Origin: an uncultured Acidimicrobiales bacterium
GTDB lineage: Bacteria; Actinomycetota; Acidimicrobiia; Acidimicrobiales; SZUA-35
Assembly: GCA_963803875.1 (NCBI GenBank)
Contig: CAWDOA010000010.1
Coordinates: 57 to 64,056, forward strand
Direction: 5' to 3'
DNA length: 64,000 nucleotides
Shown here: positions 1 through 43,395 of the stretch, piece after piece
Layout: every line of letters starts with the position of its first letter
Position numbering within the stretch: position 1 is the stretch's first letter
Notes under the pieces: generated by a model
Told to the model about the DNA's origin: nothing
What the model saw: the letters and a program-made list of their open reading frames with translations, nothing else
Database searches by the model: none
Translations under genes and position numbers: made by a program

Positions 1-441
1 TCTCGCAAAGTTGCGTAAGTCGAGATCTTAGCCGGTAAGACGAGTCGAGAACTTCTATATAGTACCAACTCGCGGGGACCGAGCGAATTGGCACGGGCTG
101 GACGGGACCCGGAAGTAGTCTAAGTAGTGCGATAAGAGGGTAGAGTGTCACTCTCTCTAGTAGGGCTTTGTTACGGACAGGTACAGTACGACTATCTAGC
201 TTATCCTAGTGGTGTAAAGGCAAGTACGACACGATTTACGCGCTAGGAATTACCGTTAAATGTTGTACCCGTACCGGTAGGGTGTACATGTGCGCGCCTC
301 CTGCGGGTATTGCTCCTGAGCTTTGGCTCGGCTCGAAGAGGCCGTCTGCTGATAATCCGGCGCCTACTTGCTACTAGGGTCCTACTGTAGCTAGTACATG
401 TATGTAGGCCAAAGGCGGTCTTAGGGATTCGGCGCAGACGA

Positions 442-684
442 ATGAATCCAACCGATCTTCTCAAGCGCACGAAGGGCATCAAGGCCGACAGTAAGAAGTC
501 CAACGTCATCGTATGCACGCACGAGTCCGCACCGAACCCTTTTGCGGTGCCGGACCTCACCAAGGTCCCCAGAAAAAATGCGTACAAGTGCAAACTTTGT
601 TCCAGAAGCTTCCGTCGAGAGCTCAAGCTCTCGAACCACATCAAGATTCATGACACATCGAAGGTCAATGCCCATAAATCCTGA
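442..684 (+). CDS. Short ORF with one canonical C2H2 zinc finger (eukaryote-type); coding status uncertain
   Basis: 80-aa ORF. YKCKLCSRSFRRELKLSNHIKIH fits Y-x-C-x2-C-x3-F-x5-L-x2-H-x3-H exactly. It lies in the AT-richer left block. Confidence 0.35.
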   Translation: MNPTDLLKRTKGIKADSKKSNVIVCTHESAPNPFAVPDLTKVPRKNAYKCKLCSRSFRRELKLSNHIKIHDTSKVNAHKS

Positions 685-746
685 AAATTCCATATCTGTA
701 TGAACCTCCTTGATTCTACCCACTATTATATCCGCATTAAATTTAG

Positions 747-906
747 AATAGCACTGAGTGCGGGGGAGCAGCAATGGACACAATTCCTGCTCCCCCTATA
801 AGGTTGAGTGGCAAGAAAAAGATACCACATTGAAACATACTGAGTGGCAATAAAATACAATAGCACAGAGTGCCGGGGAGCAGCCATGCACTAACTCCCC
901 CTATAA
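747..906. repeat. About 112-bp tandem duplication (about 1.4 copies) with internal hairpins
   Basis: aatagcacNgagtgcNggggagcagc...ccccctataa occurs at 747-801 and 859-906. tgagtggcaa occurs at 805 and 841. Copy 1 contains a 10-bp stem, gggggagcag/ctgctccccc. Confidence 0.7.
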
Positions 907-1304
907 TTTTAAGTTCCACATTATCAATCATCCACATTGCAAACATTAGAGGGCGACCGGGCCATCTGTGCACTAGGTTACTGACTACCCAGTGCTACAT
1001 GCTACATATGTACCACCCAATTTCCTACCTCCATCCATCCTACAACAGCATAAGGGGAAACTCACCCTACCACGTGCATATGGGAACCCCCCCCTGCATG
1101 CATGACACACTCCCCACCAACAACCACTCAACACACGACACACGCAGCACTTGTATATCAGGATTCATGCGCTGCTGAAGAGGATAGTAAGAATTAGAGT
1201 ACCAGCTAGGTAGACGTTCAACTTTTTTACACACATGTAAAAACTCAATCTACTTCATTTACTTCACCATTGAATCACATTATAACTATGTACATATATT
1301 TAAT

Positions 1305-3167
1305 TTACGAAAATCGCAGCTTTGGGTCCCCGAGCAAGAATGTACACCACCAGCTATTTCTCGCCTTGTCGGCCAGACTCGCTGAGTCGGAACTACTGTT
1401 ACATGTCCCCCCAGCGCAAACCCAAGCAGCCTGCGCCGCTGAAAGATTTGCATCAATATTATCTGCATTCAATAATTCATTCTGAGTTTCCAGAATGGCC
1501 CATATTTCATCCGTCTTTTCATTTGGTACAACTTCAAAGGTACCGGCAAGCATTTCGCCCATTAGTCCTCCAATCACACCTTCCTCCTTTGATTTTTCCC
1601 ACACTGTAAACCCATTAATTACCATGAAATCGGCTTCGTCAACCAGTCCTGGTATACCCAATGCAAATTCACTATCCTCCTGAGTGCATATCCAAACTCG
1701 GTTGGACTCGTCGCCTCCCAGTGGTTGACCGACCTTGGCATCTTTGAGTTCCTCACAATTGTGCAGCCAAACCGTGGGCTTTTCTGTCTGACCCTTCAGT
1801 CCAAACTTACCCCCATATCGTTGGGGAATCGAAATAATTTCCGGCTTGACTTGGCTCTTCCTCTTGCCATCCGACGAGCCTTGTTCATTCAATTTTACGT
1901 CAATCTTGTATGCAGATGGAACATTCAAAATAACTCCAACAGTGATGTGTTCATCGTCTTGAATTATCATAATGACGGACTGAAGAAACTCTTGGTCTTC
2001 AAGTAGGAATGGCTGACCGTTCCTAGTATCGGCTGAAGAAGCCGCCCTGATGATTGTTCCAGGGCTAAGATTACCAATTCGCTCGGCACGTTCAGATATG
2101 GCACTTACTTCATCTTCCACACTCTTGGTGGCGTCGGTATTGCCATGAAACACCAGACGTTGTTTCGCCCACTCTCTGAGCATTAAGTCGTCAAAGACTC
2201 CCTCTGAACATTTCGCCTCCTCGCCCTTACCAATCACATCCATCAACATATTCCAGGTACCCAGACCTACCCTCTGAGGATCCTTGGCATCATCGGTCTT
2301 TTGTATTTCCTTTAGCAATGTCTTATCGTCCGTCTGAAGCATGTACCATGATTTACGGTTAATTTCGTCAACGAGCTGACCCGCATTCCATCCGGCATAG
2401 CCACAAAATACCAGAAAGTCCTCCGCCTTGGCATGACCATCACGGACCAGCTTCCGTGCGCCGGTCATGGTCGTCCAAGATATGTTCTTTAGGACTCGTT
2501 CGCTAACCTCCAGGGCAGCATCGGACGTTAGAGAATGGAGGCAGCATTGCTCCGGATCGGGACTATCAAAACCCCGAACCTCCCCACCGAACCAAATCTT
2601 CCACTGACTATCGGGATCGGCATCGTCGAGTGGAGTTCCGTCGGAATTGACAAAGTCATCATCGCCCAAAACAAGATCCGTGGGTCGATTCAGTACAATG
2701 CCCTTGGTGAAGGCAAGTTCCTCGTGATAGATTACGAGGACAAGACACTTGTGGAAGTACTGCTGTCGAAGACCATATCCAAAGTCTTGTTCGGGGCAGG
2801 CCAGTATGATGGATCCCTTCTCGATGGCGTCACCGGACTCGTAGGCCCATGAGCCATCTAGTAGCGTCTGATCAAAGGAGGAAGACGAGGATGAGGTGGA
2901 AGAAGAAGACGAATCATCATCCTCGTCGCGGAACTGCATCACGAGCTTGGCCCGAAAGTCTCTCCAATCTTCGGCGCCCTCATTGTTGGGGTTGTTGCTG
3001 TAGTAGCGTGTTACTACATGTTGCAAAATCGGAACAGAACTTTGATGAGATTGAGAATTGCGCGGGAAAGATGTCAGCTGGGCAGGAGCAGGAGAACGAT
3101 GGAAGCCGAAGCATTGATGAACAGCACCAGCAGAGACGAGAACACGTAGAGCAAGGTTCGGCATCAT
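1305..3167 (-). CDS. Tandem YqgE/AlgH (DUF179/UPF0301) family protein, eukaryote-like with a putative organelle-targeting presequence
   Basis: Uninterrupted 620-aa ORF. The first half has FHKCLVLVIYHEELAFTKGIVLNRPT and the family hallmark FCGYAGWNAGQLVDEINRKSWY. The second half is a degenerate copy (VIMIIQDDEHITVGVILNVP ... INGFTVWEK). The N-terminus MMPNLALRVLVSAGAVHQC/FGF looks like a signal peptide plus an F-containing cleavage motif. There is a poly-Ser/Asp linker. Confidence 0.75.
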   Translation of the reverse strand: MMPNLALRVLVSAGAVHQCFGFHRSPAPAQLTSFPRNSQSHQSSVPILQHVVTRYYSNNPNNEGAEDWRDFRAKLVMQFRDEDDDSSSSSTSSSSSSFDQTLLDGSWAYESGDAIEKGSIILACPEQDFGYGLRQQYFHKCLVLVIYHEELAFTKGIVLNRPTDLVLGDDDFVNSDGTPLDDADPDSQWKIWFGGEVRGFDSPDPEQCCLHSLTSDAALEVSERVLKNISWTTMTGARKLVRDGHAKAEDFLVFCGYAGWNAGQLVDEINRKSWYMLQTDDKTLLKEIQKTDDAKDPQRVGLGTWNMLMDVIGKGEEAKCSEGVFDDLMLREWAKQRLVFHGNTDATKSVEDEVSAISERAERIGNLSPGTIIRAASSADTRNGQPFLLEDQEFLQSVIMIIQDDEHITVGVILNVPSAYKIDVKLNEQGSSDGKRKSQVKPEIISIPQRYGGKFGLKGQTEKPTVWLHNCEELKDAKVGQPLGGDESNRVWICTQEDSEFALGIPGLVDEADFMVINGFTVWEKSKEEGVIGGLMGEMLAGTFEVVPNEKTDEIWAILETQNELLNADNIDANLSAAQAAWVCAGGTCNSSSDSASLADKARNSWWCTFLLGDPKLRFS

Positions 3168-3424
3168 CGTGGTGGTGGTTCTAGACTATTACAACTAGTA
3201 GATCTAACCAACAAGCGAAGTGGAGGTGGGACTGGAGGGTTCAACAGAACAATGCCATCGACAGCTGGCCCAGACATCGACGCGCTGTTCTGCTTTTCTT
3301 ATTATGTTGTTGGCGCGCGCAAGAAAAAGTCCGGCCAGCAGCTGACAAAGATACGCGCGGTATCTTTGAACTGATGCGAGGGGAGCTACATGACTGTACG
3401 AGTACAGCTGTGTATCAAAGGTTC

Positions 3425-3460
3425 GTGTCAGGTGTGGGTGTGGGTGTGGGGTGTATGGGG
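3425..3460. repeat. TG-rich (GGTGTG/GGGTGT)n microsatellite at the compositional junction
   Basis: The sequence reads gtgtcaggtgtgggtgtgggtgtggggtgtatgggg. It lies immediately left of the point where acetoacetyl-CoA synthetase homology ends. Confidence 0.8.
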
Positions 3461-3476
3461 ATTGTGCTGACACGAA

Positions 3477-4930
3477 GGGGATTCCAACGGGCATCGACGG
3501 GAACGGCGTGCGGCACACCAGCTCTCCCTTGACGTGGAGTTCCTGGACAGGCACTCCGTCGGAGTCGAAGATGTCGATGTCCATGCCCAGGCATTTGCCC
3601 TGGAGCTCTCCGGCGTACACCGATTTGGTCGGATCGCAGCCGACCAGGCAGCCGCACAGGTCGGTGCCACCGCTCACCGATGCCAGATGGATGTCGTCAG
3701 CAAGGGCGTCGTACACCCACCCGAAGGCCTCGCTGCTCAGCGGCGAACCGGTCGAGCAGAGCGTACGCATCGATGTGAGATCGAACGTCGACCCCGGCCT
3801 CAGTTCGGTCTTGAGGCACCCGTCGATGAACTTGGCGGACACGCCGAACAACGTGAAGCGGTGCCGTTCGGCCTCCTCGAACAGCCGAGCCGGCGTGGGG
3901 AAGGCCGGGTTGCCGTCGTAGAGCACGATCGTCGCCCCCGACGCAAGGTTCCACACCAGCCAGTTCCACATCATCCAACCGCAGGTCGTGAAGTAGAAGA
4001 CGGTGTCACCGGCCTTGACGTCGCAGTGGAGTTGCTGCTCGCTGAGGTGTTTGAGCAGCACCCCACCGGTCCGGTGGACGATGCATTTCGGCTTCCCGGT
4101 GGTCCCGGACGAGTAGAGGATGTAGAGCGGGTGATCGGTGGGAAGCTGTTCGAACACGAGCTCGGTGCATCGGAATCATCCACGGCCTGGTTCCAGAGGC
4201 GCACGGTGGCGGTGCTCGCCCGGATCGGTCCGACCGTCTCGGGTGGTCCGTCCACGATCAGCAGGTGCTCGACGCTGGGCAGCCGTCCGGCGATCTCCGC
4301 CAGGCGGTCCCGCAGATCGAAGGTCTTGCCGGCGTACGATACCCGGTGGCGGCCAGGAGCACCTTGGGTTCGGTCTGCCCGAATCGGTCCACCACGCCGT
4401 CGGCGCCGAAGTCAGCGGAGGTGGAGGTGAAGACGGCCCCGATCGACGCGGCCGCCAGGAAGAGGATCACGGTCTCGGGTACATGAGGCATCCACGCCGC
4501 CACCCGGTCGCCCCGGCCGACCCCGACCGACCGAGCCATGCGCGACCGACCGCGGTGTCGGACCGGAGACGGTCCCATGTCCATGGGACCGTCGTGCCGT
4601 CCTCACCGATGGCGATGATCGCATGGCCACCGACGTCGTGCCGGTCGGCCAGGAGGTTCTCGGCCATGTTGAGCCGGGCGTCGGGGAGGAACCGCCAGCG
4701 CCAGAACTCCTCGGCCTCCTCGACACACGGGCGCCCGGGTCCCCGGACATCGCAGTAGTCCCACACCGCCGTCCAGAACGGTCCCGGGTTCTGCACCGAC
4801 CACGCCCACAGCTCGTCGCTGTTCTCCGCCGACGGGCGGACCGTGCGGCGAAATCGATCCATGTGGGAGTTGACCACCCGGTCGGCGGTTGGTCGCCACA
4901 GGAGTTCGGACAGCTCTGTCGATGTGGCAT
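3477..4930 (-). pseudogene. Acetoacetyl-CoA synthetase, 3'-truncated at the junction and frameshifted (at least 3 shifts)
   Basis: The fragments stitch together as LWRPTADRVVNSHMDRF...FWTAVWDYCDV, then VAAWMPHVPETVILFLAAASIGAVFTSTSADFG, then LYILYSSGTTGKPKCIVH...GELVCRTPFPSMPVG. The AMP-binding motif is YSSGTTGKPK. Homology stops after PSMPVG at about 3483. Confidence 0.85.
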
Positions 4931-4964
4931 GGGGACGCCGGTTCTTTCTTCTCTGGCTGCTCGG

Positions 4965-5730
4965 TCAGACCAGCTCCACGTCGGAGATCTCCGACCTCAG
5001 CACCTCGAGGGCGGCCGGGTCAAGCTCAGCGTCGACGATCAGGGAATCGGCCGCCGACAGCGGGCAGATCGTGCTCAGACCCGGTGACGCCGTACTTGGT
5101 GTGGTCGGCCACGACCACGAGTTCTGCCGCTCCCCGGATGAACGCCCGATTGGTTTCGGCCTCGAGCAGGTTCGGCGTGGTGAAGCCGGCCCGCTCGGTC
5201 ATCCCGTGCACGCCCATGAAGAGCACGTCGATGTGCAGCGAGGACAGCGCTCGACACCGCCACCGGTCCGACCAGCGCATCCGATGGCGTGCGGACACCC
5301 CCGGTGAGGACGACGTCGAGGGTGGGCGATGCACTGGGGTACAGGACCTCGGCCACCGAGATCGAGTTGGTCACGACGGTGAGCGGCCGGACATCGAGCA
5401 TCTTGGCCAGCATCCAGGTGGTCGTTCCGGCGGTGAGCCCGACCGAACTCCCGGGCCGGACCCGTGCCGCTGCTCGAGGAGCGATCGCTTCCTTGAGGTC
5501 GGTCTGCAGCGTGCGCTTCACATCGAAGCCGGGTTCTTCGGCGGTGGGCCGCTCGACCAGCGCGGCACCGCCGTGGAACTTCTCCACCAGCCCGGACCGT
5601 TGCAGACCCTCGAGATCACGACGGATCGTCATCTCCGACACCCCGAGCGGCTGGCAAGGCATGACACCCTCACCATCCCCTCGGGGCGGAGGATCTTCAC
5701 GATTTCGTCATGCCGTCGACGAGCGAGCAT
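4965..5730 (-). pseudogene. DeoR-family transcriptional regulator, frameshifted (at least 2-3 shifts)
   Basis: The N-terminal HTH (RRRHDEIVKILRPEG ... LGVSEMTIRRDLEGLQRSGLVEKFHGGA) and the C-terminal sugar-binding part (DVLFMGVHGM...VVVADHTKYG...PLSAADSLIVDAELD) lie in different frames. Confidence 0.8.
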
Positions 5731-6090
5731 CAGGCGACCCTTCGGTGACCGACGGGTGCAAAATCGCACATGACCTCGGCCGGATCGCACACCGGCGACG
5801 GCCCCGGACCGAAAAGACCGGAACGCGGGATTTGGGGACCGTTCGGTTGGCCCATGATTCGAACATATTCGCACACCGCGATGGTAGTGCACGCACGACG
5901 GTTCTGCAGGGATCTGTCCGGACGTGAAATCGGCAATAGCACGAATAGAGGGCTTTGGTCCCCATCGAATGACTTGACTCCACCGTCCGAATCTGAAAGA
6001 TTCTGTGGGATTGCCCGCACGGTGCGGGACAGTCGAGACGGTTCTCGACGGCAACAACAGCGCCACGGCGCTGAGAGATCAGGGGAGAAT

Positions 6091-7442
6091 ATGTCTGAGG
6101 AAACTCGACAGTCACCAAGTCCCAGCGAGGTCGGCTTCACCGTCGACAGGCGCAACGTCCTCAAAGGGGCTGCCGCCGTCAGCGGCGTCGCCGCTTTCGG
6201 TGGCTTGCTCGCTGCGTGCGGCAGCGACGACAGCGAGCACCGCCAGCGACGGCGATTCCGGCGATGGCGGAACCGCCGCCGCCTCGGGCACGCTCCGGGT
6301 CGGCTCCAACTACGACAACGCAAAGCCCAACGAAGCGCTAAAGGCGGCGCTCGATACGCTTCCCCAACAAGGCCATCACGATCGAGCTGAACGAGGTGGA
6401 CCACAACACCTACGAGCAACAGATCGTCGGCTACATGCAGGACCCACCGGACGACGTGGCACCCTGGTTCGCTTCGTTCCGCCTGCAGCCGCTGGCTGCG
6501 CCCGGCCTGCTGATGGACATCAGCGACGTCTGGACCGAGAAACTCGACAGCCAGCTCTCGTCGGGCTTCAAGGATGCCGCAAGCTACGACGGCAAGCAGT
6601 ACGCCGTGCCGTGGACCTTCTACAGCTGGGCCATTCACTACCGCAAGAGCGTGTGGGAAGAACTCGGTGCCACCCCGCCGGAGACCTTCGAGGAGCTCCT
6701 GGAGTTGTGCGAGACGTTGCAGGCTGCGGGAGTCACCCCTTTCGCCTTGGGTAATGACGGCTTCTGGCCAGCCCAGGGGACGTTCGACCAGTTGAACTTC
6801 CGCTTGAACGGCTACCAATATCACATCGATCTGATTCAAGGGAGGGAAAGCTGGACCGACGACCGTACCAAGGAAGTGTTCGCCCGGTGGGCCCAGCTCC
6901 TCCCCTACCACCAGCCCGACCCGAATGGCAGGAAGTGGGAGGATGCCGCTGCTGCGGTCAACAACGGCGAGGCCGCGATGATGACTATCGGCAACTTCTT
7001 CAACGAGGTGACCGCGCCTGAGGATGTGGACGACGTGGACTTCTTCCCGTTCCCCGTCCTCAACCCCGAACACGGTCAGGACACCGTCGAAGCACCGATC
7101 GACGTCTGGGTTGTTGTCGCCAACCCCGAGAACGAGGCGGCAGCCAAGGAAGTCATCGCCCATTTCGGAAGCAAGGAGGCCCAGGAAGCCTTCCTGACGG
7201 TCAATCCTGGGCTGCAGGCGACTAACAATGATTTCGACACCAGCTCCTACAGCGCCATGACGGCCAAGTCTGCCGCCATGGTGCAAGGCGCAGCTCACGT
7301 GACGCAGTTTCTGAACCGCGACACTCTGCCGGCTTTCGCCGACGAGTGCGGCCAGGCGTTCGCCGACTTCATTTCCGACCCGTCCAACATCGACTCGATT
7401 CTGGACGATCTGCAGGGCAAAGCCGAAGCGCTTCTGTCGTGA
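6091..7442 (+). pseudogene. ABC sugar transporter substrate-binding lipoprotein, two frameshifts near the 5' end
   Basis: ATG at 6091 follows aggggag. The Tat/lipoprotein-like signal is RRNVLKGAAAVSGVAAFGGLLAACGSDD. The frame changes at about 6235 and about 6370. After that comes an intact 348-aa family-1 SBP-like body (YDGKQYAVPW...). Confidence 0.8.
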
Positions 7443-7643
7443 CGAAGCTCACGCCGTGACTTTGTGGGTCCACCGTAGGTGGGCCCCACACACTCGGCCA
7501 GAGCACAAAGGGGAATGATGTGACGACGGCGACGCCGCCATCAACCGAAGAAACCAGCCCAACCGTCAGCGACGAGTACGGAAGCACCTCGGCAGCGTCG
7601 AAAGTCGCAGTTCTCGGGGAAGGATCGCCGGGTCTTCCTGGCC

Positions 7644-8525
7644 ATGCTCCTGATCCCGACGACGATCCACGTTCTGATCGTCTGGATCCCGACGATCCTG
7701 TCGATCGGGCTGTCGTTGACGAAGTGGAACGGCATCCGGTTCGAGGATCTGAGCTGGGTCGGCCTCCAGAACTACGACCAGATCATCCTGGGGGCGTTCC
7801 AGCGGGACTTCTTCCAGGCGGTGCTGAACAACCTGTGGTTGTTGCTGTTCCTGTTCTTCGGGCCGACGGCGCTGGGCATGTTCCTCGCCTACCTGCTCGA
7901 CAAGAACCTGAGGGGCACCCGGATCTACCAGAGCGTGTTCTACACCCCGGTCGTCCTGTCACTTGCCGTCGTCGGGTTCATCTGGCAGAACATCATGTAC
8001 AACCAGGATCACGGCCTGGCCACCTGGGCCTTCGGGGGCGGCGAATCGGTCGACTGGCTCGGCAACCAAGAGTTCCTGTTCGAGTTCGGTGGCTACGGTC
8101 TGTCCAAGAACTTCATCGCCATCCTCGTCGCCATGGCCTGGCGCCACAGCGGCTACATCATGGTGCTGTACCTGGCCGGGATGAAGAGTGTGGACGCCTC
8201 CCTCCGGGAATCGGCGTCGCTGGACGGTTGCAACGAGTGGCAGACCTTCCGTTTCGTCCTGTTCCCCACCCTCAAGCCGATCAACGTGATCGTCGTGGTC
8301 ATCACGGTGATCGAGGCCCTGCGGGCATTCGACATCGTGTACGTGCTCAACACCCCCCGCAACACCGAGCTGCTCTCGATCCTGACCACCAACAACCTCA
8401 TCGGTGAGGGGGCCGACAACATCGGCAGAGGATCCGCCTACGCCACGATGCTCTTCGTACTCTGCTTCGGCTTCGTGCTCTGGTACGTCACCAACCACTA
8501 CCGCAACCAGGAGAGCTCGGTATGA
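7644..8525 (+). CDS. ABC sugar transporter permease (MalF/UgpA-like)
   Basis: 293-aa multi-TM ORF. Upstream and in frame, RQRRKSQFSGKDRRVFLA has no start codon. The true start is therefore probably the GTG at 7520 in another frame, which implies one frameshift. Confidence 0.8.
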   Translation: MLLIPTTIHVLIVWIPTILSIGLSLTKWNGIRFEDLSWVGLQNYDQIILGAFQRDFFQAVLNNLWLLLFLFFGPTALGMFLAYLLDKNLRGTRIYQSVFYTPVVLSLAVVGFIWQNIMYNQDHGLATWAFGGGESVDWLGNQEFLFEFGGYGLSKNFIAILVAMAWRHSGYIMVLYLAGMKSVDASLRESASLDGCNEWQTFRFVLFPTLKPINVIVVVITVIEALRAFDIVYVLNTPRNTELLSILTTNNLIGEGADNIGRGSAYATMLFVLCFGFVLWYVTNHYRNQESSV

Positions 8526-9454
8526 CCGATCTCGCCGATACCAAACCGGTGGCCGCCGCCCCGCCTTCGACCGGCCCCCAGTTCATACCTCGCAAGGCGC
8601 CGTTGCGCCCGGCCCGGGTTGTCCTCCACGTCTTCCTCATCCTGCTCGGCATCCTCTGGCTGACCCCCCTCGTCGTCTCCCTCTACGCGTCGTTCCGGCC
8701 CTTCAGCGAGACACTCAACAAGGGATTTCTGTCGCTGCCGGACAAGCTCAGCCTCGAGAACTACCGGTCGGCCCTCGACCAGGGCGACTTCATCGACAAG
8801 TACTGGAACACAGCGCTGATCCTGATCCCGTCCCTGCTGCTCACGCTGTTCCTGGCGTCGATGATCGCCTTTGTCGCCAGCCGGTACTCCTGGCGACTCA
8901 ACATCTTCTTCCTGGTGCTGTTCACCGCCGGCAACCTGCTGCCGCCTCAGATCATGGTGGCCCCGCTGTTCCAGGCATTCCGGCGCATTCCGCTGCCCGA
9001 CTTCATGTCCAACTCGGGCAATTTGAACGGATCCACCTGGGCGATCATCCTGCTGCACGTCGGCTTCCAGATGGGTTTCTGCACCTTCGTGCTCAGCAAC
9101 TACATGAAGCTACTCCCCAAGGAGCTCAACGAAGCTGCCATGGTGGACGGCGCCAGTCTGTGGACCACCTACTCCAGGATCGTGATGCCCCTCACCCGCC
9201 CGGCGCTGGCGGCGCTGGCCACGCTCGAGTTCGCCTGGATCTACAACGACTTCTTCTGGGCGGTCATCTTCGAACAGCGCGGCGACGACCGTCCGATCAC
9301 CTCGGCCCTGGCCAACCTCGGCGGCCAGTTCGTGACCGACACCAACGTGGTGGCGGCAGCATCGATCTTCGTCATCATCCCGGTGATGATCGTGTACTTC
9401 GCCCTCCAGAAACACTTCATCGCCGGGCTCACGCTCGGCGCCACCAAGGGCTGA
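8522..9454 (+). CDS. ABC sugar transporter permease (MalG/UgpE-like)
   Basis: 310-aa multi-TM ORF. Its ATGA start overlaps the stop of the upstream permease. An EAA-like loop reads NEAAMVDGASLWTTYSRIVMPLTRPAL. Confidence 0.85.
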   Translation: MTDLADTKPVAAAPPSTGPQFIPRKAPLRPARVVLHVFLILLGILWLTPLVVSLYASFRPFSETLNKGFLSLPDKLSLENYRSALDQGDFIDKYWNTALILIPSLLLTLFLASMIAFVASRYSWRLNIFFLVLFTAGNLLPPQIMVAPLFQAFRRIPLPDFMSNSGNLNGSTWAIILLHVGFQMGFCTFVLSNYMKLLPKELNEAAMVDGASLWTTYSRIVMPLTRPALAALATLEFAWIYNDFFWAVIFEQRGDDRPITSALANLGGQFVTDTNVVAAASIFVIIPVMIVYFALQKHFIAGLTLGATKG

Positions 9455-9470
9455 TCACCCGCTTGCAGGG

Positions 9471-11601
9471 TTACCCTGGATCGAGCTTGGACGAGGCAGG
9501 CGCCCGCTCGGGCCAGAAGATCCGGCAGTGACAGACCGTGACCGCCCAGGAACTCGCGCCGGCCGAGGTCGCCGCGCCCTCGTCCCCATCCATCGCCGGG
9601 CGGGGCGAAGTCGACGCCCGGCACCTCGCCACCGATCAACAGCGGCTCCACCCGGTAGACCCGGTCAGTTGCTCGAGCCAGCGGAATGATCAGCGGCGAC
9701 AGTGGTCGAGGTCCTCGTGTGGCGATCGCTGGCCACACTGAACAGTCCCTCCGATCAGCTCGGCATCCACGCACACCGTGGGCCACGATCGAGGGCTCGG
9801 GATGGTCCAGCCGCACCGGCACGCCGGTGTGGAGAAGGTGGCGATGCTCCTTGTACAACCGATCACCTCCCGCAGCGCCGTGTCGGTCGTCGTCCGTCAT
9901 CGTGAGCAGGTTCCACTCGATCCCCAGGTGGCCGAACACGGCCGTGGCCGCGCGAAATCCGAGGCTGTGGGTGCGACCGGTCGTGTGGCTGGTCGGCGGT
10001 CCGATGTGCGAGCCCATCATCTCCGGAGGGACGATCAGCGACGCGCCTCGCTGGATCAGCTGACGGTCAGCGGCGTCGTTGCTGTCCGATGTCCACACCC
10101 GATCGGTACTGGCCAGGATTCCGGCGTCGATCCTGCCACCGCCGCTGGCGCACGATTCCCACTCGACGTCGGGATGGGCCGCCCGTAGATCGTCGAGCAG
10201 CTCGTACAAGCCCCAGCACGTGCGCGGTGCACACCGGCCCGACCGTCGGCACCCGATCCCTGCACGATCGACGCGGTTCATGTCCCACTTCACGTAGCCG
10301 ATTCGATGGCTCGACAGGATGGCGTCGATCTGGTCGAAGAGGTTTGCCCGCACCTCGGGCCGACCGAAGTCCAGGACGAGTTGATGGCGGCCGAGGACCG
10401 GTTCGTAGCCCTCGGTGGTGAGCGTCCACTCGGGATGCAGTCGGTACAGGTCGCGAGTCGGGGTTGACCATCTCGGGTTCGAACCAGATGCCGAACGCCA
10501 TGCCCGTGGCCGGTCACCCGTTCGATCAGCGGGTCGAGACCGGTGGGCCAGACGTCGGGCGACACGTACCAGTCCCCCAGACCCTCTGGTGTCGTCGCGC
10601 CGGCTGCCGAACCAGCCGTCGTCGAGCACGAATCGCTCGACCCCGATATCGGCGGCTGCGTCGGCCGAGTTCGAGGAGTTCTGTCAGGTCGTGATCGAAA
10701 TAGACCGCCTCCCAGGTGTTGAGGTTGACCGGTCGGGGTCCGAGCTCCTTGGGCCGCACGACTCTGGCGCATGTAGCGATGGAAACGGACAGGCGCCGGT
10801 CAACCCGTTGTCGGAGCAGGTGGCGATCACCCGGGGCATGTCGTAGGCCTCACCAGGTCCAAGCTCCGGATCTCGCCCGGGAGCAGCAGCTCGCCCGAGC
10901 TGCAGGAACATCCGGCCGTCGCTCATTCCTCGGCGATCACCCGGTAGTTGCCGCTCCACGCCAGCTGGGCGCCCCACACGTGACCGTCGGATTCGCCGAA
11001 ACCGTCGGTTCCGACGAAGACGACCGGAGCGTTCTCGTGCGAGGTACGGCCGCGGCGGTTCTCCACATCACCTGGCCCGACGAAGGGACGCCGCACCATC
11101 TGGAACTCCATGGTCCAGCGACCCGACAGCGTCAGCAGCTCGGTGGCATGGGTCGGGATCGGCAGTGATGGCGACAGAGCGTGGCAGGATGTAGGGCGTG
11201 TCCCCGGTGTTGGTCAGGACCGCATCGACGGTCACGACCGCCCCGGCGGTCACGGCGATCGTGGTCGACCAGTTGGAGCCCGGCGATCGGTCCTCGAGAA
11301 CGAACGAGATCGAATCGGATTGCATCCGCTCCTCGGTTCTGACTGAACCGGGGCGACCACCCGCTTCCGTCGGGCCGCTGGCCGCTGATCCCCGGAGCGC
11401 CGGGAAAGCCCAGCGACTCCTCGGCGAACAGCCCGATCGGGGGGTGGGACTCCAGGGTGGCCGGCGGCAGGCCGGCCCGGTAGAGCTCGAGGCGTCGGCC
11501 TCGGCCTCGGGCTGCGCTGTAGCGGCCCCACCCGAGGACCTCGGGCATCTCCGTGCCACCGGTGATCTCCACCGAAGTGCCGCCGTGGAGATCCTGTGCA
11601 C
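9471..11601 (-). pseudogene. GH36 alpha-galactosidase, heavily frameshifted (at least 8 shifts)
   Basis: Fragments lie in all three frames. They include GESDGHVWGAQLAWSGNYRV, RPVNLNTWEAVYFDHDL, LDDGWFGSRRDD, MAFGIWFEPEMVNPDS, IGYVKWDMNR, ESCASGGGRID and RVWTSDSNDAADRQ. The ends are approximate. The listed ORF 9241-10629 reads through antisense into the permease. Confidence 0.8.
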
Positions 11602-11602
11602 C

Positions 11603-12525
11603 TCAGTAGACAGGCCGCACGAAGCGGGCCGAGTTCGGTCGGCGCCGGTCGGCCAACGCGGCCGGTCCGTGGGTGGCGATGCGACCGGGCAGCCGATGAT
11701 CGACGGCCGCGCTCGAGGTCCTTGGCCACTGCGAGCAGGGCGGCCAGGTCCACACCGGTCTCGAGCATCGGGTCGTCGTCGGCGAGGTGAACCAGATCCT
11801 CGGTGGCGAGGTTGCCTCCGGCGCCCCTGGCGAAGGGCGATCCACCCAGCCCCCCGACGGCGGTGTCGAACCTGGTCACCCCGTAGCCGATGGCGGTGAA
11901 GGCGTTCACCAGCGCCGTCCCCCGGGTGTCGTGCAGGTGGAGACCCACATCGACGCCGGTCTTGTGGAGGACCCGTTCGATGCGATGGGGGGTGGCCATG
12001 CCGGTCGTGTCGGCGAGGGTGAATCGATTGACGCCCCGCTCGGCCAGCTGGCTCATGAGGTCCGGCACCGTGCCGGTCGGTTCGTCACCGGTGTAGGGGG
12101 AGCCGAAGACGCACGAGATGACGACGTCGACCACACGACCGTCGGCGATCTCCACGATCCGGCCGATCGCCTCGACCGACTCATCGATCGAGCGGCGCAC
12201 GTTGCGCTCGTTGTACACCGGGCAGGCCGACACGGTGACGGTCAGCGCATCGATGTTGGCCGCCAGCGCCATCTCTGCGCCCCGCTCGTTGGGCACCAAG
12301 GCCCACAACCGGACTTCCGAACGGCGATCGACGAGCGCCAACACATCGGCGGCGTTCGCCATCGCAGGAACAGCGGTGGGCGACACGAAACTGACCGCCT
12401 CGATCTCGGTCAAGTCCGGTCCGGCACAGCGCGCTGATGATCTCGGCCCGCCGCTCGACGTTCAGCGGCGCTTCGTTCTGGAGGCCGTCGCGGGGGCCGA
12501 CCTCCCGAATCACGAGTTGCGGCAT
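11603..12525 (-). pseudogene. Hydroxymethylglutaryl-CoA lyase family protein, about 2 frameshifts
   Basis: MPQLVIREVGPRDGLQNE comes first, then a frame change to EIEAVSFVSP...FTLADTTGMATP...GLHLHDTRG. The C-terminus lies in a third frame and ends at 11603. Confidence 0.8.
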
Positions 12526-12599
12526 CCCACGATCATAGCGCCAGCGGCCCCGCCGCCTCTTCCGCATTAGACTCTACGGCATCGGAGCACGGAGGGTCT

Positions 12600-14091
12600 G
12601 TGCACACGATCGTCGTCCTCGGCGACCAGCTGAACGAGCGAATCGGCGCCCTGGCCACAGCCAGACCCGGACGAACACCGCATCCTCATGGTCGAGAGCG
12701 AGGCGATCCTCGCGATCGGGCCGCCACCGTCAGCGCCTCCACCTCGTCACGACGGCGATGCGACGCTTCGCCGCCGAGCTGAGGCCGACAGGGGATTCGA
12801 GGTCGACTATCGCCGAGCACCGACCATGCGGGATCGGGCATCGAGGCACACCTGCACCGAGCACGGCCCGGACCGGCCTGATCGCAACCGAACCGAACAG
12901 TCGGCGGGCGCAGGACCCTGCTCGACGACCTCGGAGCGTCGAGCTGGTCCGATCGAATCAGTTCCTGTGCCACTACGACGACTTCGCAGACGTGGGCCAG
13001 GGATCGGAAGTCGCTGAAGATGGAGGACTTCTATCGCTGGACCAGAACCAATCTGGGTTATCTGATGGACGGCGACGAACCCGAACAGGGCCGATGGAAC
13101 TTCGACGCCGACAATCGTCGACCCACCACCCGACGACCCGGACATCTTCTCCAGACCGTCACGGTCGAGCACTCGACGATGTCGATCGAGCCGTGCTCGA
13201 TTCCCTTCCGGTCACCGGCGGCCAGACACCTGTTGGGCTGTGGGCGACGAGCAGGAAAGCGGCGCTCCAGCGGCTTCGGCACTTCGTCGAGAACGAACTG
13301 CCCACGTTCGGGCCCTACGAGGACGCCATGACCACGGGGAGCTGGCATCTGTCCCACAGCCTCCTCAGCCCCTATCTGAACATCGGTCTCCTGATGCCCG
13401 ACGAGGTCGTCGAGGCGGCCATCGCCGAGTACGAGGCCGGTCGGGCTCCAATTCATTCCGTCGAAGGATTCGTGCGCCAGATCATCGGGTGGCGGGAGTA
13501 CGTGTGGGGCCTCTACTGGCTGTGGCCCGACCACGTCGATGCCAACGTCTTCGACCACCGCCGCCACGTACCGCCGCATGCTGACCGGTGAGGCCGACCA
13601 CCGAGATGGTGTGCGTCTCCGAGGCGGTCGACGGTCTCGAGGAACGGGCATACGTGCACCACATCCAACGGCTGATGGTGCTGTCGAACTTCGCCAACCT
13701 CTACGGCATCGAGCCGAGGCGGTTGATGCACTGGATGTGGCGAAACTACATCGACGGCGCCGAATGGGTGATGATCCCGAATGTGATGGGCATGGCGTTG
13801 TGGGCCGACGGTGGGCGAATGGCGACCAAGCCCTACGTCTCGGGCGGCGCCTACATCAATCGCATGAGCGACTACTGCAGCGAACTGTCGCTTCGATCCG
13901 AAGAAGCGGACCGGATCGACCAGTCCTGTCCGTTCACCACTCTCTACTGGGACTTCATGGCGAGAAACCGGGTGCTCGAGAAGGCCAATCATCGGATGAG
14001 CCGGGCGGTGGCCAATCTCGATCGCCTGAAGCGACATCGACGACGTACGGTCACGAGCTCGAGAGGTGAAAGACAAGATCGCAGCTGGTGA
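12600..14091 (+). pseudogene. Cryptochrome/photolyase-family protein of the FeS-BCP / (6-4) photolyase-related type, at least 5 frameshifts
   Basis: The fragments are VHTIVVLGDQLN, MEDFYRWTR...GRWNFDADNR, WATSRKAALQRLRHFVENELPTFGPYEDAM...HSLLSPYLNIGLL, and HHIQRLMVLSNF...MSDYC...CPFTTLYWDF. Confidence 0.75.
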
Positions 14092-14148
14092 GCTGTAGTG
14101 CTCTGGTTGATCACACGTTGAGTTGGCCCACGGCCTAGGTTGGCGAGC

Positions 14149-14889
14149 ATGTTCGAGAACACGATCATGCTGATCACCGGCGCTTCTCGAGGTATCGGCG
14201 CCGCAACCGCGGAGATGGCAGCACAACGTGGCGCAGCCGTGTTCATCAACTACCGGAGCAATCATGATGCCGCCAATGCAGTAGTGGATCGCTGTCGAGC
14301 GACCGGTTCACAGGCTGCGGCATTCGCCGGGGATATCAGCAACGAAGAAGACGTCCTGGCAATGTACGCCGAGTGCATCGGACACTTCGGCCCGCCCAAC
14401 GTGCTCGTCAACAACGCCGGCATCCTTCACAACCTCGACCGAGTGGAGAACTACACCGCCCAACGACTCCATGAGGTGGTGAACGTGAACATCGTGGGCG
14501 CCTTCTTGTGTGCCAGGGAAGCGGTCAAGATCATGTCGGACAAGCGGGGTGGCAACGGTGGATCAATAGTGAACGTCTCCTCCGCAGCGTCCTATCTGGG
14601 CAGCCCCAACGAATATGTCGACTACGCCGCAACCAAAGGTGCGATGGACACGATGACCATCGGATTGGCCCGAGAGGTGGCTGACGAAGGCATCAGGGTG
14701 AACGCTGTACGACCCGGTCTGATAGACACCGATATGCACGAGGGCGATCGGCTTGAACGGTTGTGGCGAAACATCCCGATGCAGCGAACCGGCACCCCGG
14801 ACGAGGTTGCCGAAGCGATCTTGTTTCTGGCCTCGGATGCGTCGAGCTACGTGAACGGGGCCCTGCTGAACGTCTCGGGCGCCCGCTAG
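14149..14889 (+). CDS. SDR-family short-chain dehydrogenase/reductase
   Basis: Intact ORF with TGASRGIG, NNAG and a YxxxK region (YAATKGA). By eye it is less GC-rich than block 2 to its left. Confidence 0.9.
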   Translation: MFENTIMLITGASRGIGAATAEMAAQRGAAVFINYRSNHDAANAVVDRCRATGSQAAAFAGDISNEEDVLAMYAECIGHFGPPNVLVNNAGILHNLDRVENYTAQRLHEVVNVNIVGAFLCAREAVKIMSDKRGGNGGSIVNVSSAASYLGSPNEYVDYAATKGAMDTMTIGLAREVADEGIRVNAVRPGLIDTDMHEGDRLERLWRNIPMQRTGTPDEVAEAILFLASDASSYVNGALLNVSGAR

Positions 14890-15054
14890 GAGGCTGCTGA
14901 TTAATGCCGTTGAGGTTCAGGGCGGCCAGGCGCCGTTCACGCAAGGACGCAGATTCTGACACTCCTTGTGAGCGGAATGGCAGGATTGAGGACGAAGCGT
15001 GGGCGGATGGAAGGGTGTTCTGGGCCCAGCATGTATTGATCAGCAGCCTCCTAG
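14886..15054. repeat. MITE-like element: 20-bp terminal inverted repeats (19/20) around about 129 bp
   Basis: ctaggaggctgctgattaat at 14886-14905 pairs with attgatcagcagcctcctag at 15035-15054. The outermost 15 bp are perfect. The two TAG stops of the convergent flanking genes lie inside the repeat termini. Confidence 0.6.
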
Positions 15055-15721
15055 GTCGCAACAGACCCGTCGGCGGCGTGGAGCCGCTTCAACACACGGG
15101 CCAACGCCGTTGCGTCGAGGGCGCCGGGAACGGCGTAGGCCATATTGAACACAAACGTGGGGACAGCGGTGATGTCATTGTCGGCCGCCACCTGCAGGTC
15201 GTCGGCCACCTCTGCTTGTCCCCCACCGGACGTCGAGCCAGGCGCGGAGCTCCTCGCCATCGAGGCCCACGTCAGCCGCCAGTCCGATGAGTGTGTCCAG
15301 ATCACCAATTGCAGCACCTTCGTACGAAGTACGCCCTGAGCAAGCGCTCTTTCAGCTCCCCCTGGACGCCCTTGGCAAGGGCGAAGGCGAGTACTCGATG
15401 GCCGAGGATGGTGTTGGACCGTTTGGCGATGTCGAGGCGGAAATCGAGGCCTTCGCCGGCGGCTTCGTTGGTCATGTGGGCGATGAGTTCCTGTGCCCGT
15501 TCGGGCCCGCCGAACTTCTTCTCGTACACCTCCCGGACCAATTGGTCCTCGCCCACCGGTGCCGTGGGGTCGAGTTGAAATGCGTGATACTCGACCTCGA
15601 CCTCGAGGTCGGGGTGTTCTTCTGTGGCCATCCGAATGGCCGACTCCATGCGGCGTTTCCCGATGTAACACCACGGGCACACGATGTCGGACCAAATGTC
15701 GATTTTCACCGGAGTGGGCAC
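15051..15721 (-). pseudogene. DsbA/FrnE-like thiol oxidoreductase, 2 frameshifts
   Basis: The N-terminus is IDIWSDIVCPWCYIGKRR (CPWC active site). The C-terminus, DDLQVAADNDITAVPTFVFN...GA, lies in another frame, and the middle part lies in a third. Confidence 0.8.
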
Positions 15722-15822
15722 CCGTTCAGGCTAGACACTCCCATGCCCGACCTTGGAGTACCGGCGAACGAATTGTCCTCACGCACAGCAGCCGGCGGTA
15801 GTGGTCGCCGGCTGGGCGCACG

Positions 15823-17484
15823 TCAGGCGGTCTCGATTGCAGCGGCCGAAGCGAGACCAAGGTCGTCGATGGCCTGATCGCGTAGCTTGAACTTCTGGAT
15901 CTTGCCGGTGACGGTCATGGGGAACTCGTCGGTGATCTGCACATAGCGGGGGATCTTGTAGTGAGCGATCTTGCCGCGGCAGAACTCCCGTACTTCGTCG
16001 GCGTCGAGAGTCTCGCCGTCGGCGGCCAGCACAAACGCCATCAGCTCCTCGCCGTACTTCGCGTCGGGCACGCCGACCACTTGGACGTCTTGAATCTTGG
16101 GGTGGCTGTAGAGGAACTCTTCGATCTCTCGGGGGTACACGTTTTCTCCGCCCCGGATCACCATGTCCTTGATCCGGCCCACGATGTTGACATAACCGTC
16201 CTCGTCCATGACCGCAATGTCTCCCGAGTGCATCCAGCCGTCGTCATCTATCGATTCCGCGGTTCGCTCCGGCTCCTCCCAATACCCCAGCATCACCGAG
16301 TATCCCTTGGTGCAGAACTCGCCCGGGGTGCCTCTCGGAACGGTATCCCCGCTTTCCGGATCGATCACTTTCACTTCGATATGGGGTTGGACTCGGCCAA
16401 CCGTGGAGACCCGTTTCTCTACCGGATCATCGGTGGCGGTCTGGGTGCTGACAGGAGAGGTCTCGGTCATGCCGTAGGCGATGGTGACTTCGTTCATGTT
16501 CATCTCACTCATTGTCTGTCGCATCACCTCGATCGGGCACGGGGAGCCAGCCATGATCCCCGTACGCAGTGACGACAGGTCGTAGTGGGGGAAGCTGTCC
16601 TCGGAAAGCTGGGCGATGAACATGGTGGGAACGCCATACAGACTGGTTGCTCGTTCTTCGGCCACGGCCTTCAGCGTGGCGATCGGCTCGAATGAAGCAG
16701 CCGGGTAGATGGCCGCAGCGCCGTGCGTGGTGCACCCGAGGTTGCCCATCACCTGACCAAAGCAGTGATACAGCGGAACGGGGATCATCACCCGGTCGTC
16801 TTCGGTGTAACCGCACGCCTCCGCCACGAAATAACCGTTGTTCAGTATGTTCCGATGGCTCAGGGTTGCGCCCTTGGGGAACCCGGTCGTCCCCGACGTG
16901 TACTGGATGTTTATCGGATCGGTCGGCAACAGCCCCGCCTCTATCTCGGCAACCTCCTCGCTCGTGACCCGATCGGCAGCCCCCAGAAGGTCGTCCCAAT
17001 CGGCTGTTCCTATGAAGATGACCTGTTCCAGACCGGGGACGTCATCTCTGATTTCGGCGACCATTGCCCGATAATCACTGGTCTTGAACGTGGTGGCCGC
17101 CACCAGTCCCTTGCAACCGGATTGATTCAGGACGTAGGCCACCTCATGGGTTCGATAGGCGGGATTGATACTCACCTGTATCACGCCGATTCGCGCCGTT
17201 GCGTACTGAATCAGTGCCCACTCACTCACATTCGGCGCCCAGATTCCGATGCGATCTCCCTTCGAAAACCCCCGTGCCACCAACGCCCTCGCAACAATGT
17301 CGATCTCGTTCCAGAACTGGTGGTAGGTCCAACGAATGTCCTGATGTTTGACCACCAGCGCTTCCCTGGTTCCATGCAACCCCACCGTGCGGGCCAGATT
17401 CTGGCCGATCGTCTCTTCGAGTAGAGCCGGCTCGGAAGCTCCCACTGTATGACTGCCATCCGAGTTCAGATCGATCGTCTCCAT
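15823..17484 (-). CDS. AMP-dependent acyl-CoA synthetase/ligase
   Basis: Intact 553-aa ORF with [18 protein letters not shown]-like AYGMTETSP, and [20 protein letters not shown]. Confidence 0.9.
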
Positions 17485-17544
17485 CTCACAAAGGTAGTTG
17501 CGCCGATGGCGGCGGTCACCTTCGGTTGTCGCGAAGTTGGTGAT

Positions 17545-18874: not shown

Positions 18875-18899
18875 TGAAGCCGTGCCGAATCGAGTGACC

Positions 18900-20351: not shown

Positions 20352-20355
20352 CGAC

Positions 20356-22542: not shown

Positions 22543-22564
22543 ACCGCAGCCACCTTCGCGACGT

Positions 22565-23260: not shown

Positions 23261-23282
23261 TCATCGCCCAGTTGCAACCGGA

Positions 23283-24209: not shown

Positions 24210-24342
24210 CGCAGGATCACGCGAAGGTCGCTGCGCTGGTGAAAGGAAACGTCGGCCACTCATGTATTCAAGCACTCAGGTGTTCGTTGCGGGCACAACG
24301 GTGGCACCCTTGTGTCCCGCATAACCTGCCGGCCCGTCTTCG

Positions 24343-25501: not shown

Positions 25502-25511
25502 GGGTTTCCCG

Positions 25512-27756: not shown

Positions 27757-27775
27757 AACCTCAACCTAACTCCGC

Positions 27776-30621: not shown

Positions 30622-30625
30622 GGTG

Positions 30626-31237: not shown

Positions 31238-31314
31238 AGAATCGCGGGTCTGGTGCTGATCGAAGGCCCATCGGTCGAAGGGCACGGCCAGTCGGGCCTG
31301 CCCGAACAGGACCA

Positions 31315-34665: not shown

Positions 34666-34675
34666 GAAGCACTCC

Positions 34676-43391: not shown

Positions 43392-43395
43392 GATT

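Follow-up and report, generated by a model that had tools for sequence, protein, structure and literature searches.

The window analysed in this work, a stretch of 64,000 nucleotides, consists of about 3.5 kb of diatom nuclear DNA joined to about 60 kb of Acidimicrobiia chromosome, and its composite nature was confirmed. The GC content of positions 1-3480 is 49%, compared with 62% for the remainder of the window; divided more finely, it amounts to 0.487 (1-3402), 0.551 (3403-3480) and 0.622 (3481-64000). This step is in agreement with the sequence-only reading made earlier for the same DNA, in which the left block was described as AT-richer and everything to its right as high in GC. A k-mer composition continuous across 3.4-3.5 kb had been named there as an observation that would speak against a composite. 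We found it to be discontinuous, which was indicated by a tetranucleotide distance of z = 8-11 for 1.5-kb subwindows in 1-3000 from the 10-64 kb centroid; background subwindows did not exceed z of about 4. A hidden Markov model of bacterial codon-position GC assigned 1-3470 to the non-coding state and coding sequence from 3471 onwards, i.e., bacterial codon periodicity is missing from 1-3470. Neither Rfam nor a tRNA scan gave a match anywhere in the window.

The diatom (Bacillariophyta) nuclear DNA occupies positions 1..3402 and was recognized by its composition (48.7% GC), by the diatom homologues of its gene and, in the region 1021-3402, by an independent contig. It contains an intronless gene (1305..3167, minus strand) coding for a 620-aa tandem DUF179/AlgH (UPF0301) protein with two PF02622 stretches (Pfam, E 8e-30). 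The halves of this protein resemble each other weakly (23% identity, E 0.007), and the internal repeat, together with the two Pfam stretches, bears out the tandem arrangement that had been proposed from the translation. The protein has 365 homologues, and every named one comes from a diatom; among the matches listed, coverage across the DUF179 homologues is ~75-100%. The named relatives belong to Epithemia, Cylindrotheca, Seminavis, Fragilaria, Pseudo-nitzschia, Nitzschia, Ditylum and Helicotheca, and their identity to the window protein is only 36-41%. All closer relatives (55-71% identity) are metagenome or MMETSP sequences, so the source is a diatom without a sequenced close relative in these data. 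In four loci (L162-L165), the relatives are embedded among eukaryotic genes, such as those for kinases, an F-box protein and a histone. An exact-protein look-up of the 620-aa protein gave no match. Thus, the eukaryotic origin claimed for the left block was specified by the DUF179 homologues as diatom. The block has no best matches in the adjoining bacterial lineage, which had been listed as a possible refutation, and we found no gene of that lineage in it, just as the absence of bacterial-type genes had been asserted.

Proteins imported into the diatom plastid carry a bipartite presequence, in which the signal peptide is followed by an aromatic F at position +1 of the cleavage site (ASAFAP-type motif). 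The N-terminus of the 620-aa protein (...SAGAVHQC/FGF, where the slash denotes the predicted cleavage site) consists of a signal peptide followed by F, and this residue is kept in the homologues (...CNG/FV, ...IEA/FAP, ...CQA/FVV, ...ARS/FSP, ...VDS/FLP). The protein therefore matches the presequence pattern and is predicted to be plastid-targeted. What had been noticed earlier as a stramenopile-type signal and transit peptide (AVHQC/FGF) turned out to be a diatom signal-peptide-plus-F pattern common to the homologues. Similar tandem proteins of diatoms are deposited as 'UPF0301 protein' of Seminavis robusta (P0061), 'YqgE/AlgH family protein' of Cylindrotheca closterium (P0054) and 'ACR COG1678 domain containing protein' of Nitzschia inconspicua (P0112). 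Like the window protein, diatom tandem proteins have ~600-700 aa, two DUF179 domains and a signal peptide whose predicted cleavage site is followed by F, and in several genomic contigs the gene is intronless, as in the window; the named ones differ from it in the low identity given above. In Arabidopsis, DUF179-1 (AT1G33780) and DUF179-3 (AT3G29240) are proteins of the plastid stroma, which were recovered with the CLPC1 chaperone (PMC8889267). They belong to the same Pfam family and also come from a photosynthetic eukaryote, but their plastid localisation is experimental, whereas that of the diatom protein is predicted. Moreover, a tandem form is not described for Arabidopsis DUF179 in that paper, while the diatom protein has two domains.

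The second ORF of the diatom block (442..684, plus strand) codes for 80 aa and contains one canonical C2H2 finger at residues 48-70. Its segment YKCKLCSRSFRRELKLSNHIKIH is an exact C-x2-C-x3-F-x5-L-x2-H-x3-H finger, and CKLCSRSFRRELKLSNHIKIH fits the general C-x2-4-C-x12-H-x3-5-H pattern with the conserved F and L. The left block has a single copy of the strict motif, against 0 in 3000 Markov shuffles, and so the perfect C2H2 zinc finger reported from the letters holds; the Pfam zf-C2H2 score of this single finger (23.3 bits) is just below the gathering score of 25.2. In a set of 5.8 billion proteins, only the ORF itself was matched. The ORF may represent the terminal exon of a larger gene. 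Small ORFs located downstream of DUF179 in related diatom loci were compared with it and proved not to be homologous. Two direct repeats of ~50 nt each, 105-112 nt apart, are present in the diatom intergenic region (744..914), and the first of them holds a 14-nt hairpin (762-775 / 783-796). All these features would be consistent with a normal diatom locus, made up of the tandem DUF179 gene for a plastid-targeted protein, its promoter region and 3' UTR, and an adjacent zinc-finger exon.

The independent evidence for the diatom block comes from a Logan contig of 2496 bp (ERR12040029; L001), which aligns to window positions 3402..1021. Between 3402 and ~1090 (~2300 bases), the two sequences differ by 2 mismatches (~99.9% identity), and over these 2.3 kb we observed no indels, with ~1.5 expected at the rate of the bacterial side. 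Such an indel-free diatom block is slightly awkward for a very noisy terminal read. The Logan contig contains no bacterial DNA. Its agreement with the window stops at 3403, still some 80 nt short of the break, and it has only 20 nt beyond this point; these first 20 nt do not match window positions 3403-3422.

We considered whether the window is no composite at all, in which case the left block would belong to the bacterium as one of its AT-rich islands, for example a horizontally acquired bacterial island with an AlgH gene, given that the DUF179/AlgH family is also found in bacteria (Pfam description). However, the 620-aa tandem architecture and its sequence match diatom proteins only, the ~99.9% match is to a separate diatom-type contig, and the proteins with 55-71% identity lie among eukaryotic genes. 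Bacterial codon periodicity is lacking in this block, and at the border a bacterial gene breaks off instead of giving way to genes of the island type. The diatom-only relatives, their eukaryotic neighbourhoods and the missing periodicity refute this reading, the probability of which we consider practically nil.

The right side of the window (3481..64000) is an Acidimicrobiia (Actinomycetota) chromosome segment with housekeeping genes, and its best genome matches are Acidimicrobiia MAGs. Its Pfam content includes TatC, TatA, S26 signal peptidase, tRNA-synt_1c (GlnRS-type synthetase), Thy1 (ThyX), DEAD/DSHCT (HelY-type) helicase, AstA/AstB/Aldedh (AST pathway), SufS/NifU, and ABC and MFS transporters. 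The genome matches sharpen the earlier actinobacterial assignment to the class level. Local synteny was observed as well: the neighbourhood of acetoacetyl-CoA synthetase (AACS), HMG-CoA-lyase-like and acyl-CoA synthetase genes is common to the window and one MAG locus (L013), and the alpha-galactosidase gene is shared with another (L002). Contigs of the same bacterial species were not found in the collections searched, where the best amino-acid identity was 82%. Exact-protein look-ups of the intact bacterial proteins at 7644-8525 and 15823-17484 gave no match; differences in the choice of start codon may be a further reason for these misses and for that of the 620-aa protein.

The first bacterial gene is that for AACS (3483..4964, minus strand), which is truncated at its 3' end. 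It was identified by Pfam (AMP-binding) and by tblastn with Acidimicrobiia homologues, which showed 70% identity over residues 18-497 of 669. Scans with the AACS fragment gave best identities of 71% in GTDB genomes, 68% in metagenome contigs and 82% in the large protein search. The gene is cut after approximately residue 497-515 (~500 of 650), and ~155-170 C-terminal residues, AMP-binding_C included, are gone; the closest homologue (P0155, 82% identity) runs 167 aa beyond the break. In addition, its reading frame shifts by 1 nt at three places, near 4550, 4340 and 4175. The terminal ORF covers only positions 159-377 of the AMP-binding profile, and the complete AMP-binding and AMP-binding_C domains in one frame, by which an acetoacetate-CoA ligase is recognized, were not found. 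The acetoacetate-CoA ligases of Acidimicrobiia MAGs (L002, L004, L013; P0155) share 65-82% identity with the window AACS over the AMP-binding domain and differ from it in having neither the truncation nor the three shifts. As written in the window, the gene cannot encode a working enzyme.

Frame shifts are not limited to AACS. About 12 were documented in bacterial genes, all within ~4.1-22.2 kb, i.e., in the 19 kb adjoining the junction. They affect AACS (three), DeoR, a solute-binding protein (two), GH36 alpha-galactosidase, HMGL-like, DsbA-like (~15.3 kb), AstB and M20 peptidase genes. They were mapped by blastx against the proteins of the fetched loci and by Pfam profile coordinates, and the survey covers ORFs with Pfam or locus homologues only. 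This procedure replaced GC3-based ORF tiling and the codon-GC model, which were too weak for mapping frame shifts past the first few kb. The aligned segments of the frameshifted genes showed no in-frame stop codons. Between 23 and 64 kb, most of the tested ORFs extend over their Pfam profiles. Frame arithmetic on ORF coordinates indicated that the AACS shifts look like 1-nt deletions and that those of DeoR and the solute-binding protein have the opposite direction; only one shift lies clearly in a homopolymer (CCC to CC). The direction is thus non-diagnostic and, with one clear homopolymer case, no specific sequencing platform can be named, although an indel-prone one is inferred. The confinement of the shifts to the vicinity of the junction suggests a poorly supported contig end. 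In principle, the frameshifted bacterial genes could also be real pseudogenes.

If a diatom nuclear genome had received at least 60 kb of bacterial DNA that is now beginning to decay, the frame shifts would be accounted for; the affected genes adjoin the junction, and the diatom flank is intact. Decay would be expected throughout the insert, however, while the frame shifts end at ~22 kb and the genes at 23-64 kb look intact, and nonsense codons were not noticed. The GC content is not ameliorated (62% versus 49%), the insert would be larger than the rest of the contig, a second diatom flank does not appear within 60.5 kb, and we found no contig of the same diatom species that bears bacterial DNA. 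Such an insertion is highly improbable.

The diatom-bacterium breakpoint lies at 3481..3485. The AACS homology stops at 3483-3486, and so the value of 3483 given in the sequence-only reading for the end of the left block is essentially exact. At this point, the expected ...FPSMPxGFW... gives way to ...FPSMPVGIPFVSAQ..., the bacterial gene is cut mid-codon, and the GC3 of the bacterial DNA stays at 0.86 as far as the breakpoint. A stretch of 78 nt (3403..3480, GC 0.551; the region of the mismatch with the Logan contig starts here, at 3403-3422) separates the confirmed diatom sequence from the start of the bacterial sequence and includes the tandem repeat (GGTGTG)3.3 at 3431-3450. The join contains no run of N, and a search with adapter sequences revealed nothing adapter-like at the junction. 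Signatures of integration are absent: no integrase, transposase, mobile element, target duplication, inverted repeat or microhomology was found at the join. Three proteins of the window (P0121, P0153 and P0154) were all located on a single 66,070-bp contig, which is longer than the window by only 2,070 bp. Consequently, the diatom piece is at most 5.5 kb long and lies at, or nearly at, the end of the contig. There is one junction, with diatom DNA reaching window position 1 and bacterial DNA reaching 64000; recipient DNA on both flanks of the foreign block, by which an integration is recognized, was not observed.

These data bear on a very recent uptake, in which a diatom-associated member of Acidimicrobiia integrated at least 3.5 kb of diatom nuclear DNA by illegitimate recombination and thereby disrupted AACS. 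A clean join without adapter, two organisms evidently present in one sample and a disrupted gene at the insertion point, which is expected of random integration, are all compatible with it. On the other hand, there is only one junction, beyond which the diatom DNA runs to the window start with the contig end at most 2 kb further, and microhomology, duplication and a mobile element are all lacking. The ~99.9% identity to a free diatom sequence implies that the event took place within the sampled population, and a poorly supported contig end is where artefacts accumulate. Furthermore, chimeric contigs have a far higher prior than the transfer of non-selected DNA from a eukaryote to a bacterium. 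We regard the uptake as very unlikely. Taken in either direction, as several kb of diatom DNA recently taken in by Acidimicrobiia or as at least 60 kb of bacterial chromosome taken in by a diatom nucleus, a real join is very unlikely; it would provide a rare view of DNA passing between domains, before any amelioration.

We infer that the join is an assembly or read chimera and not a natural gene transfer, with a probability of roughly 85%. The preference for an artefact over integration, expressed before this analysis, thus also emerges as the best-supported reading here; it follows from the terminal position of the piece, the gene cut mid-codon, the unameliorated state of both sides and the consensus quality falling towards the junction. 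A sharp compositional break, unrelated organisms and an arbitrary interruption of a gene without an integration signature, by which chimeras are recognized, were all found. The two DNAs would have been supplied by two organisms of one sample (a diatom-containing community or a non-axenic culture) and joined most likely in vitro or in silico. This could have occurred by means of a chimeric long read, with two molecules ligated or read back to back, or by a false overlap at a thinly covered end of the bacterial contig. An indel-prone consensus whose support falls towards the contig end is a setting in which chimeric reads survive. Nothing functional would extend across such a join, and the bacterial part would be a normal chromosome segment in which AACS ends where the foreign DNA starts. 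Inter-genome chimeric contigs known from metagenomes, MAGs and non-axenic assemblies show the same abrupt switch of taxonomy and k-mers at one point, with a short, terminal foreign piece, a gene cut without a biological signature and an error density rising towards the join. The window differs from them in that there is no adapter at the join and in that the mechanism is a proposed one.

The main value of this result concerns database hygiene, and its biological interest is low. DNA of two domains is present in a public 66-kb contig that is probably listed under a single organism, and the record deserves a flag. If the contig is part of a bacterial MAG, annotation would wrongly present the DUF179 and zinc-finger ORFs of the diatom as bacterial, and erroneous reports of eukaryote-like genes in Actinomycetota, or of horizontal transfer there, could follow. 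If it is part of a diatom assembly, its 60 kb of bacterial genes would give the impression that the diatom had acquired foreign genes on a massive scale by horizontal transfer. For other contig ends of this kind, a clustering of frame shifts such as that near the join can be taken as a practical warning. As a side product, the diatom tandem DUF179 family with its conserved, predicted plastid-import signal was well delineated.

The window is composed of DNA of two origins. The GC content, calculated in 500-nt windows, was 45-53% up to about position 3250 and 60-71% from 3500 on, and stayed at 59.5-68% in the remainder of the 64-kb window, which contains no N bases. The exact GC fractions were 0.487 for 1-3402, 0.551 for 3403-3480, and 0.622 for 3481-64000. 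In 1.5-kb windows compared with the centroid of 10-64 kb, the tetranucleotide distance was 8-11 SD inside 1-3000 and was back at background within one window past the junction. In a seven-state model whose training set was the codon-position GC of long bacterial ORFs, 1-3470 fell in the non-coding state, and a coding state began at 3471. Because GC, tetranucleotide distance, and the codon-GC model all switch at or close to the junction, k-mer continuity is absent, and the composite of a eukaryote-like block and actinobacterial DNA described in the sequence-only reading is real.

The junction was located with the acetoacetyl-CoA synthetase (AACS) gene, which adjoins it on the right on the minus strand (3483-4964). 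The homology of this gene extends from residue 18 to 497-515 of 650-700-aa synthetases and ends at window position 3483-3486. The alignment with the best protein match found anywhere (P0155, 82% identical) stops at ...TPFPSMPV (position 3486), and P0155 runs 167 residues further, including the AMP-binding_C domain. The FPSMPxGFW... of the relatives is replaced by FPSMPVGIPFVSAQSPYTPHPHPH..., which is translated diatom DNA. Since AACS homology ends here and diatom translation takes over, the breakpoint lies at 3481-3485, within a motif conserved at the codon level. No inverted or direct repeats bracketing the breakpoint, recombinase, or duplication were found, and common library adapters, with sequences taken from general knowledge, gave no match at the junction. 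A cluster look-up placed the 620-aa protein of the left block, the zinc-finger ORF, and the truncated synthetase ORF on one 66,070-bp NCBI/ENA contig. The window covers 97% of this contig, so that the diatom DNA forms a tag at one contig end, at least 3.5 kb and no more than 5.5 kb long. Only one diatom/bacterium junction is present on the contig.

The main gene of the left block is a 620-aa ORF (1305-3167, minus strand) with two stretches of the DUF179/AlgH domain (PF02622, E 8e-30), and its halves are weakly alike in self-comparison. Among 5.8 billion proteins searched, 365 relatives were identified. All named matches are diatoms (Epithemia, Cylindrotheca, Seminavis, Fragilaria, Pseudo-nitzschia, Nitzschia, and one Bacillariaceae MAG), in agreement with the eukaryotic character first ascribed to this block, and the MMETSP/EukProt entries point to Ditylum and Helicotheca. 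Identity to the diatom-named matches was 36-42%, and the alignments took in about 75-100% of the protein; closer relatives (55-71% identity) are metagenome, Logan, and MMETSP sequences. In genomic contigs of 48-55%-identical relatives, the gene is also a single unbroken ORF, and its neighbours are eukaryotic (an IRE1-type kinase, another protein kinase, an F-box protein, a histone, and a histidyl-tRNA synthetase), so an intronless DUF179 gene is normal for diatom nuclear DNA. Bacterial DNA as the source of the left block was rejected on the basis of the diatom-only named relatives, the eukaryotic gene neighbours, and the absence of bacterial coding periodicity.

Diatom plastid pre-sequences carry an ASAFAP-type pattern. 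The N-terminus of the 620-aa protein is MMPNLALRVLVSAGAVHQC|FGF, and in homologues whose N-termini are complete, a hydrophobic signal peptide likewise precedes F (CNG|FV, IEA|FAP, CQA|FVV, ARS|FSP, VDS|FLP). Because this layout corresponds to the ASAFAP-type pattern, the signal and transit peptide proposed earlier is supported in silico. The tandem DUF179/AlgH arrangement with signal peptide and F motif is kept across pennate and centric diatoms (P0002-P0120). The gene, which stems from a lineage not yet sequenced, adds a new member to the tandem UPF0301/AlgH family conserved in diatoms. Two Arabidopsis proteins of the plastid stroma, DUF179-1 and DUF179-3, were recovered together with the chaperone CLPC1 (PMC8889267). 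These plant relatives are single-domain, stromal, and CLPC1-interacting, whereas the diatom protein is tandem with a predicted plastid-import signal.

The left block also contains a C2H2 zinc-finger ORF (442-684, plus strand). The finger noted from the sequence proved to be a canonical one. The strict motif occurred in 0 of 3000 Markov shuffles of the left block, although the Pfam score was slightly under threshold. No homologue of the ORF was found. We take it for a genuine exon that codes for a zinc finger and belongs to an undefined gene. In the diatom intergenic region (744-914), a pair of ~50-nt direct repeats, which lie 105-112 nt apart and are 86% identical, may represent a small repeated element. 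The first repeat holds a 14-nt hairpin (GGGGGAGCAGCAAT / ATTCCTGCTCCCCC).

The diatom sequence was found independently in L001, a 2496-bp Logan contig of run ERR12040029, which encodes the same 620-aa protein minus the first Met and contains no bacterial DNA. It aligns to window 3402-1021 with only two mismatches from 3402 to about 1090. Past about 1090 (L001 2330-2496), homopolymer-length differences (8 G versus 6 G, and a C-run) and small indels were observed down to 1021, where similarity is lost. The differences at 1021-1090 could stem from variation between haplotypes or strains, from a small insertion, or from errors in sequencing. No counterpart of the zinc-finger ORF was found in the L001 data set. 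Since the first 20 nt of L001 do not match window 3403-3422, the 78 nt at 3403-3480, of intermediate GC (0.55), are left unassigned between the two sides; they include a (GGTGTG)3.3 microsatellite (3431-3450).

The right block is bacterial, as had been proposed, according to matches with Acidimicrobiia MAGs, gene order, and Pfam content. The best genome matches of AACS were Acidimicrobiia/Acidimicrobiales MAGs (65-71% amino-acid identity). Gene order was compared by a blastx search in which the window was matched to the ORFs of fetched loci. L013 shares both the HMG-CoA-lyase-like gene and the acyl-CoA synthetase at about 70% identity; in L002, the AACS gene has a GH36 alpha-galactosidase as its neighbour; and L003 encodes the metallo-beta-lactamase-fold protein at 81% identity. 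Pfam annotation of about 50 ORFs revealed genes of regulation and transport (DeoR regulator, sugar ABC transporter, ECF-type and MFS transporters), metabolism (SDR, AstA/aldehyde dehydrogenase/AstB, carboxyltransferase, SufS/NifU, threonine-aldolase-type lyase, hydantoinase), and housekeeping (class-Ic aminoacyl-tRNA synthetase, ThyX, HelY-type DEAD/DSHCT helicase, TatC/TatA, S26 signal peptidase), together with a LysM-SLT transglycosylase and a secreted ribonuclease. Scans for tRNA and Rfam families found none. The genes of the right block are ordinary and correspond to the chromosome of a free-living bacterium.

Many bacterial genes close to the junction are frameshifted. The synthetase has three frame shifts, near 4550, 4340 (TT to T), and 4175 (CCC to CC). 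The C-terminal domain of the DeoR regulator is divided over two frames (profile 3-87, 79-142); the TAT signal, N-terminal part, and body of a solute-binding protein lie in three frames (two shifts), and the N-domain and catalytic domain of the GH36 enzyme in different ones. The HMGL-like ORF continues into nonsense, a DsbA-like gene switches frame near 15.3 kb, and AstB (profile 2-205, 207-440) and an M20 peptidase (profile 2-53, 62-205) are split near 18233 and 22.1 kb, respectively. No in-frame stop codons were seen within the aligned segments of these genes. The tested ORFs of 23-64 kb mostly have end-to-end Pfam coverage, exemplified by MFS_3, Aminotran_5 (2-360/371), Beta_elim_lyase (1-286/288), tRNA-synt_1c, TatC (2-208/208), Peptidase_S26 (2-168/168), and M20 (1-205/206); a luciferase-like ORF (26911-27765) covers only positions 55-236 of 314. 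Among the tested ORFs, a non-exhaustive set, about 12 frameshifts, all between 4100 and 22200, fall in the 18.6 kb near the junction versus none detected in 42 kb (23000-64000), a clear gradient. We infer an indel-prone consensus, with support thinning toward the contig end near the junction. Uniform pseudogene decay would not yield such a gradient. The diatom segment has no indels against L001 over 2.3 kb, which is not a significant contrast because only about 1.5 are expected at the bacterial rate.

We conclude with a probability of about 85% that the contig is a chimera of diatom and Acidimicrobiia DNA, not a natural transfer. This is favoured because the foreign piece is terminal and the junction single, a housekeeping-type gene is cut arbitrarily by a join without biological signature, neither DNA shows amelioration and each is either essentially identical to its free-living source or typical of it, and sequence quality falls toward the join. 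We share the earlier preference for an artefact as the simplest account. Either a chimeric read or a false overlap at the contig end would have joined diatom and bacterial DNA from one sample, and thin coverage at that end may have let the join persist. Real integration, counting both directions together, is very improbable, since it needs a very recent event caught exactly at the contig end. The record matches the class of known inter-genome chimeric contigs; the worth of the finding lies in flagging it, no new biology is shown, and its import is otherwise low.

Within the Acidimicrobiia segment, an arginine succinyltransferase (AST) pathway cluster occupies 17548-21372 on the minus strand: AstA (20356-21372), aldehyde dehydrogenase (18900-20351), and the frameshifted AstB (17548-19078). 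Two 556-aa ORFs (39376-41043 and 48135-49802, plus strand) match no Pfam family significantly, and the first gives only faint P-loop matches. Both could be lineage-specific proteins, and the second could alternatively be a shadow of opposite-strand genes. Many of the closest AACS matches (P0156, P0162, P0190, P0221) are 250-390-aa fragments on NCBI/ENA contigs of 0.1-0.9 Mb. Broken calls of the ~650-aa AACS thus appear to be frequent among long MAG contigs, a hint that frameshift errors are widespread.
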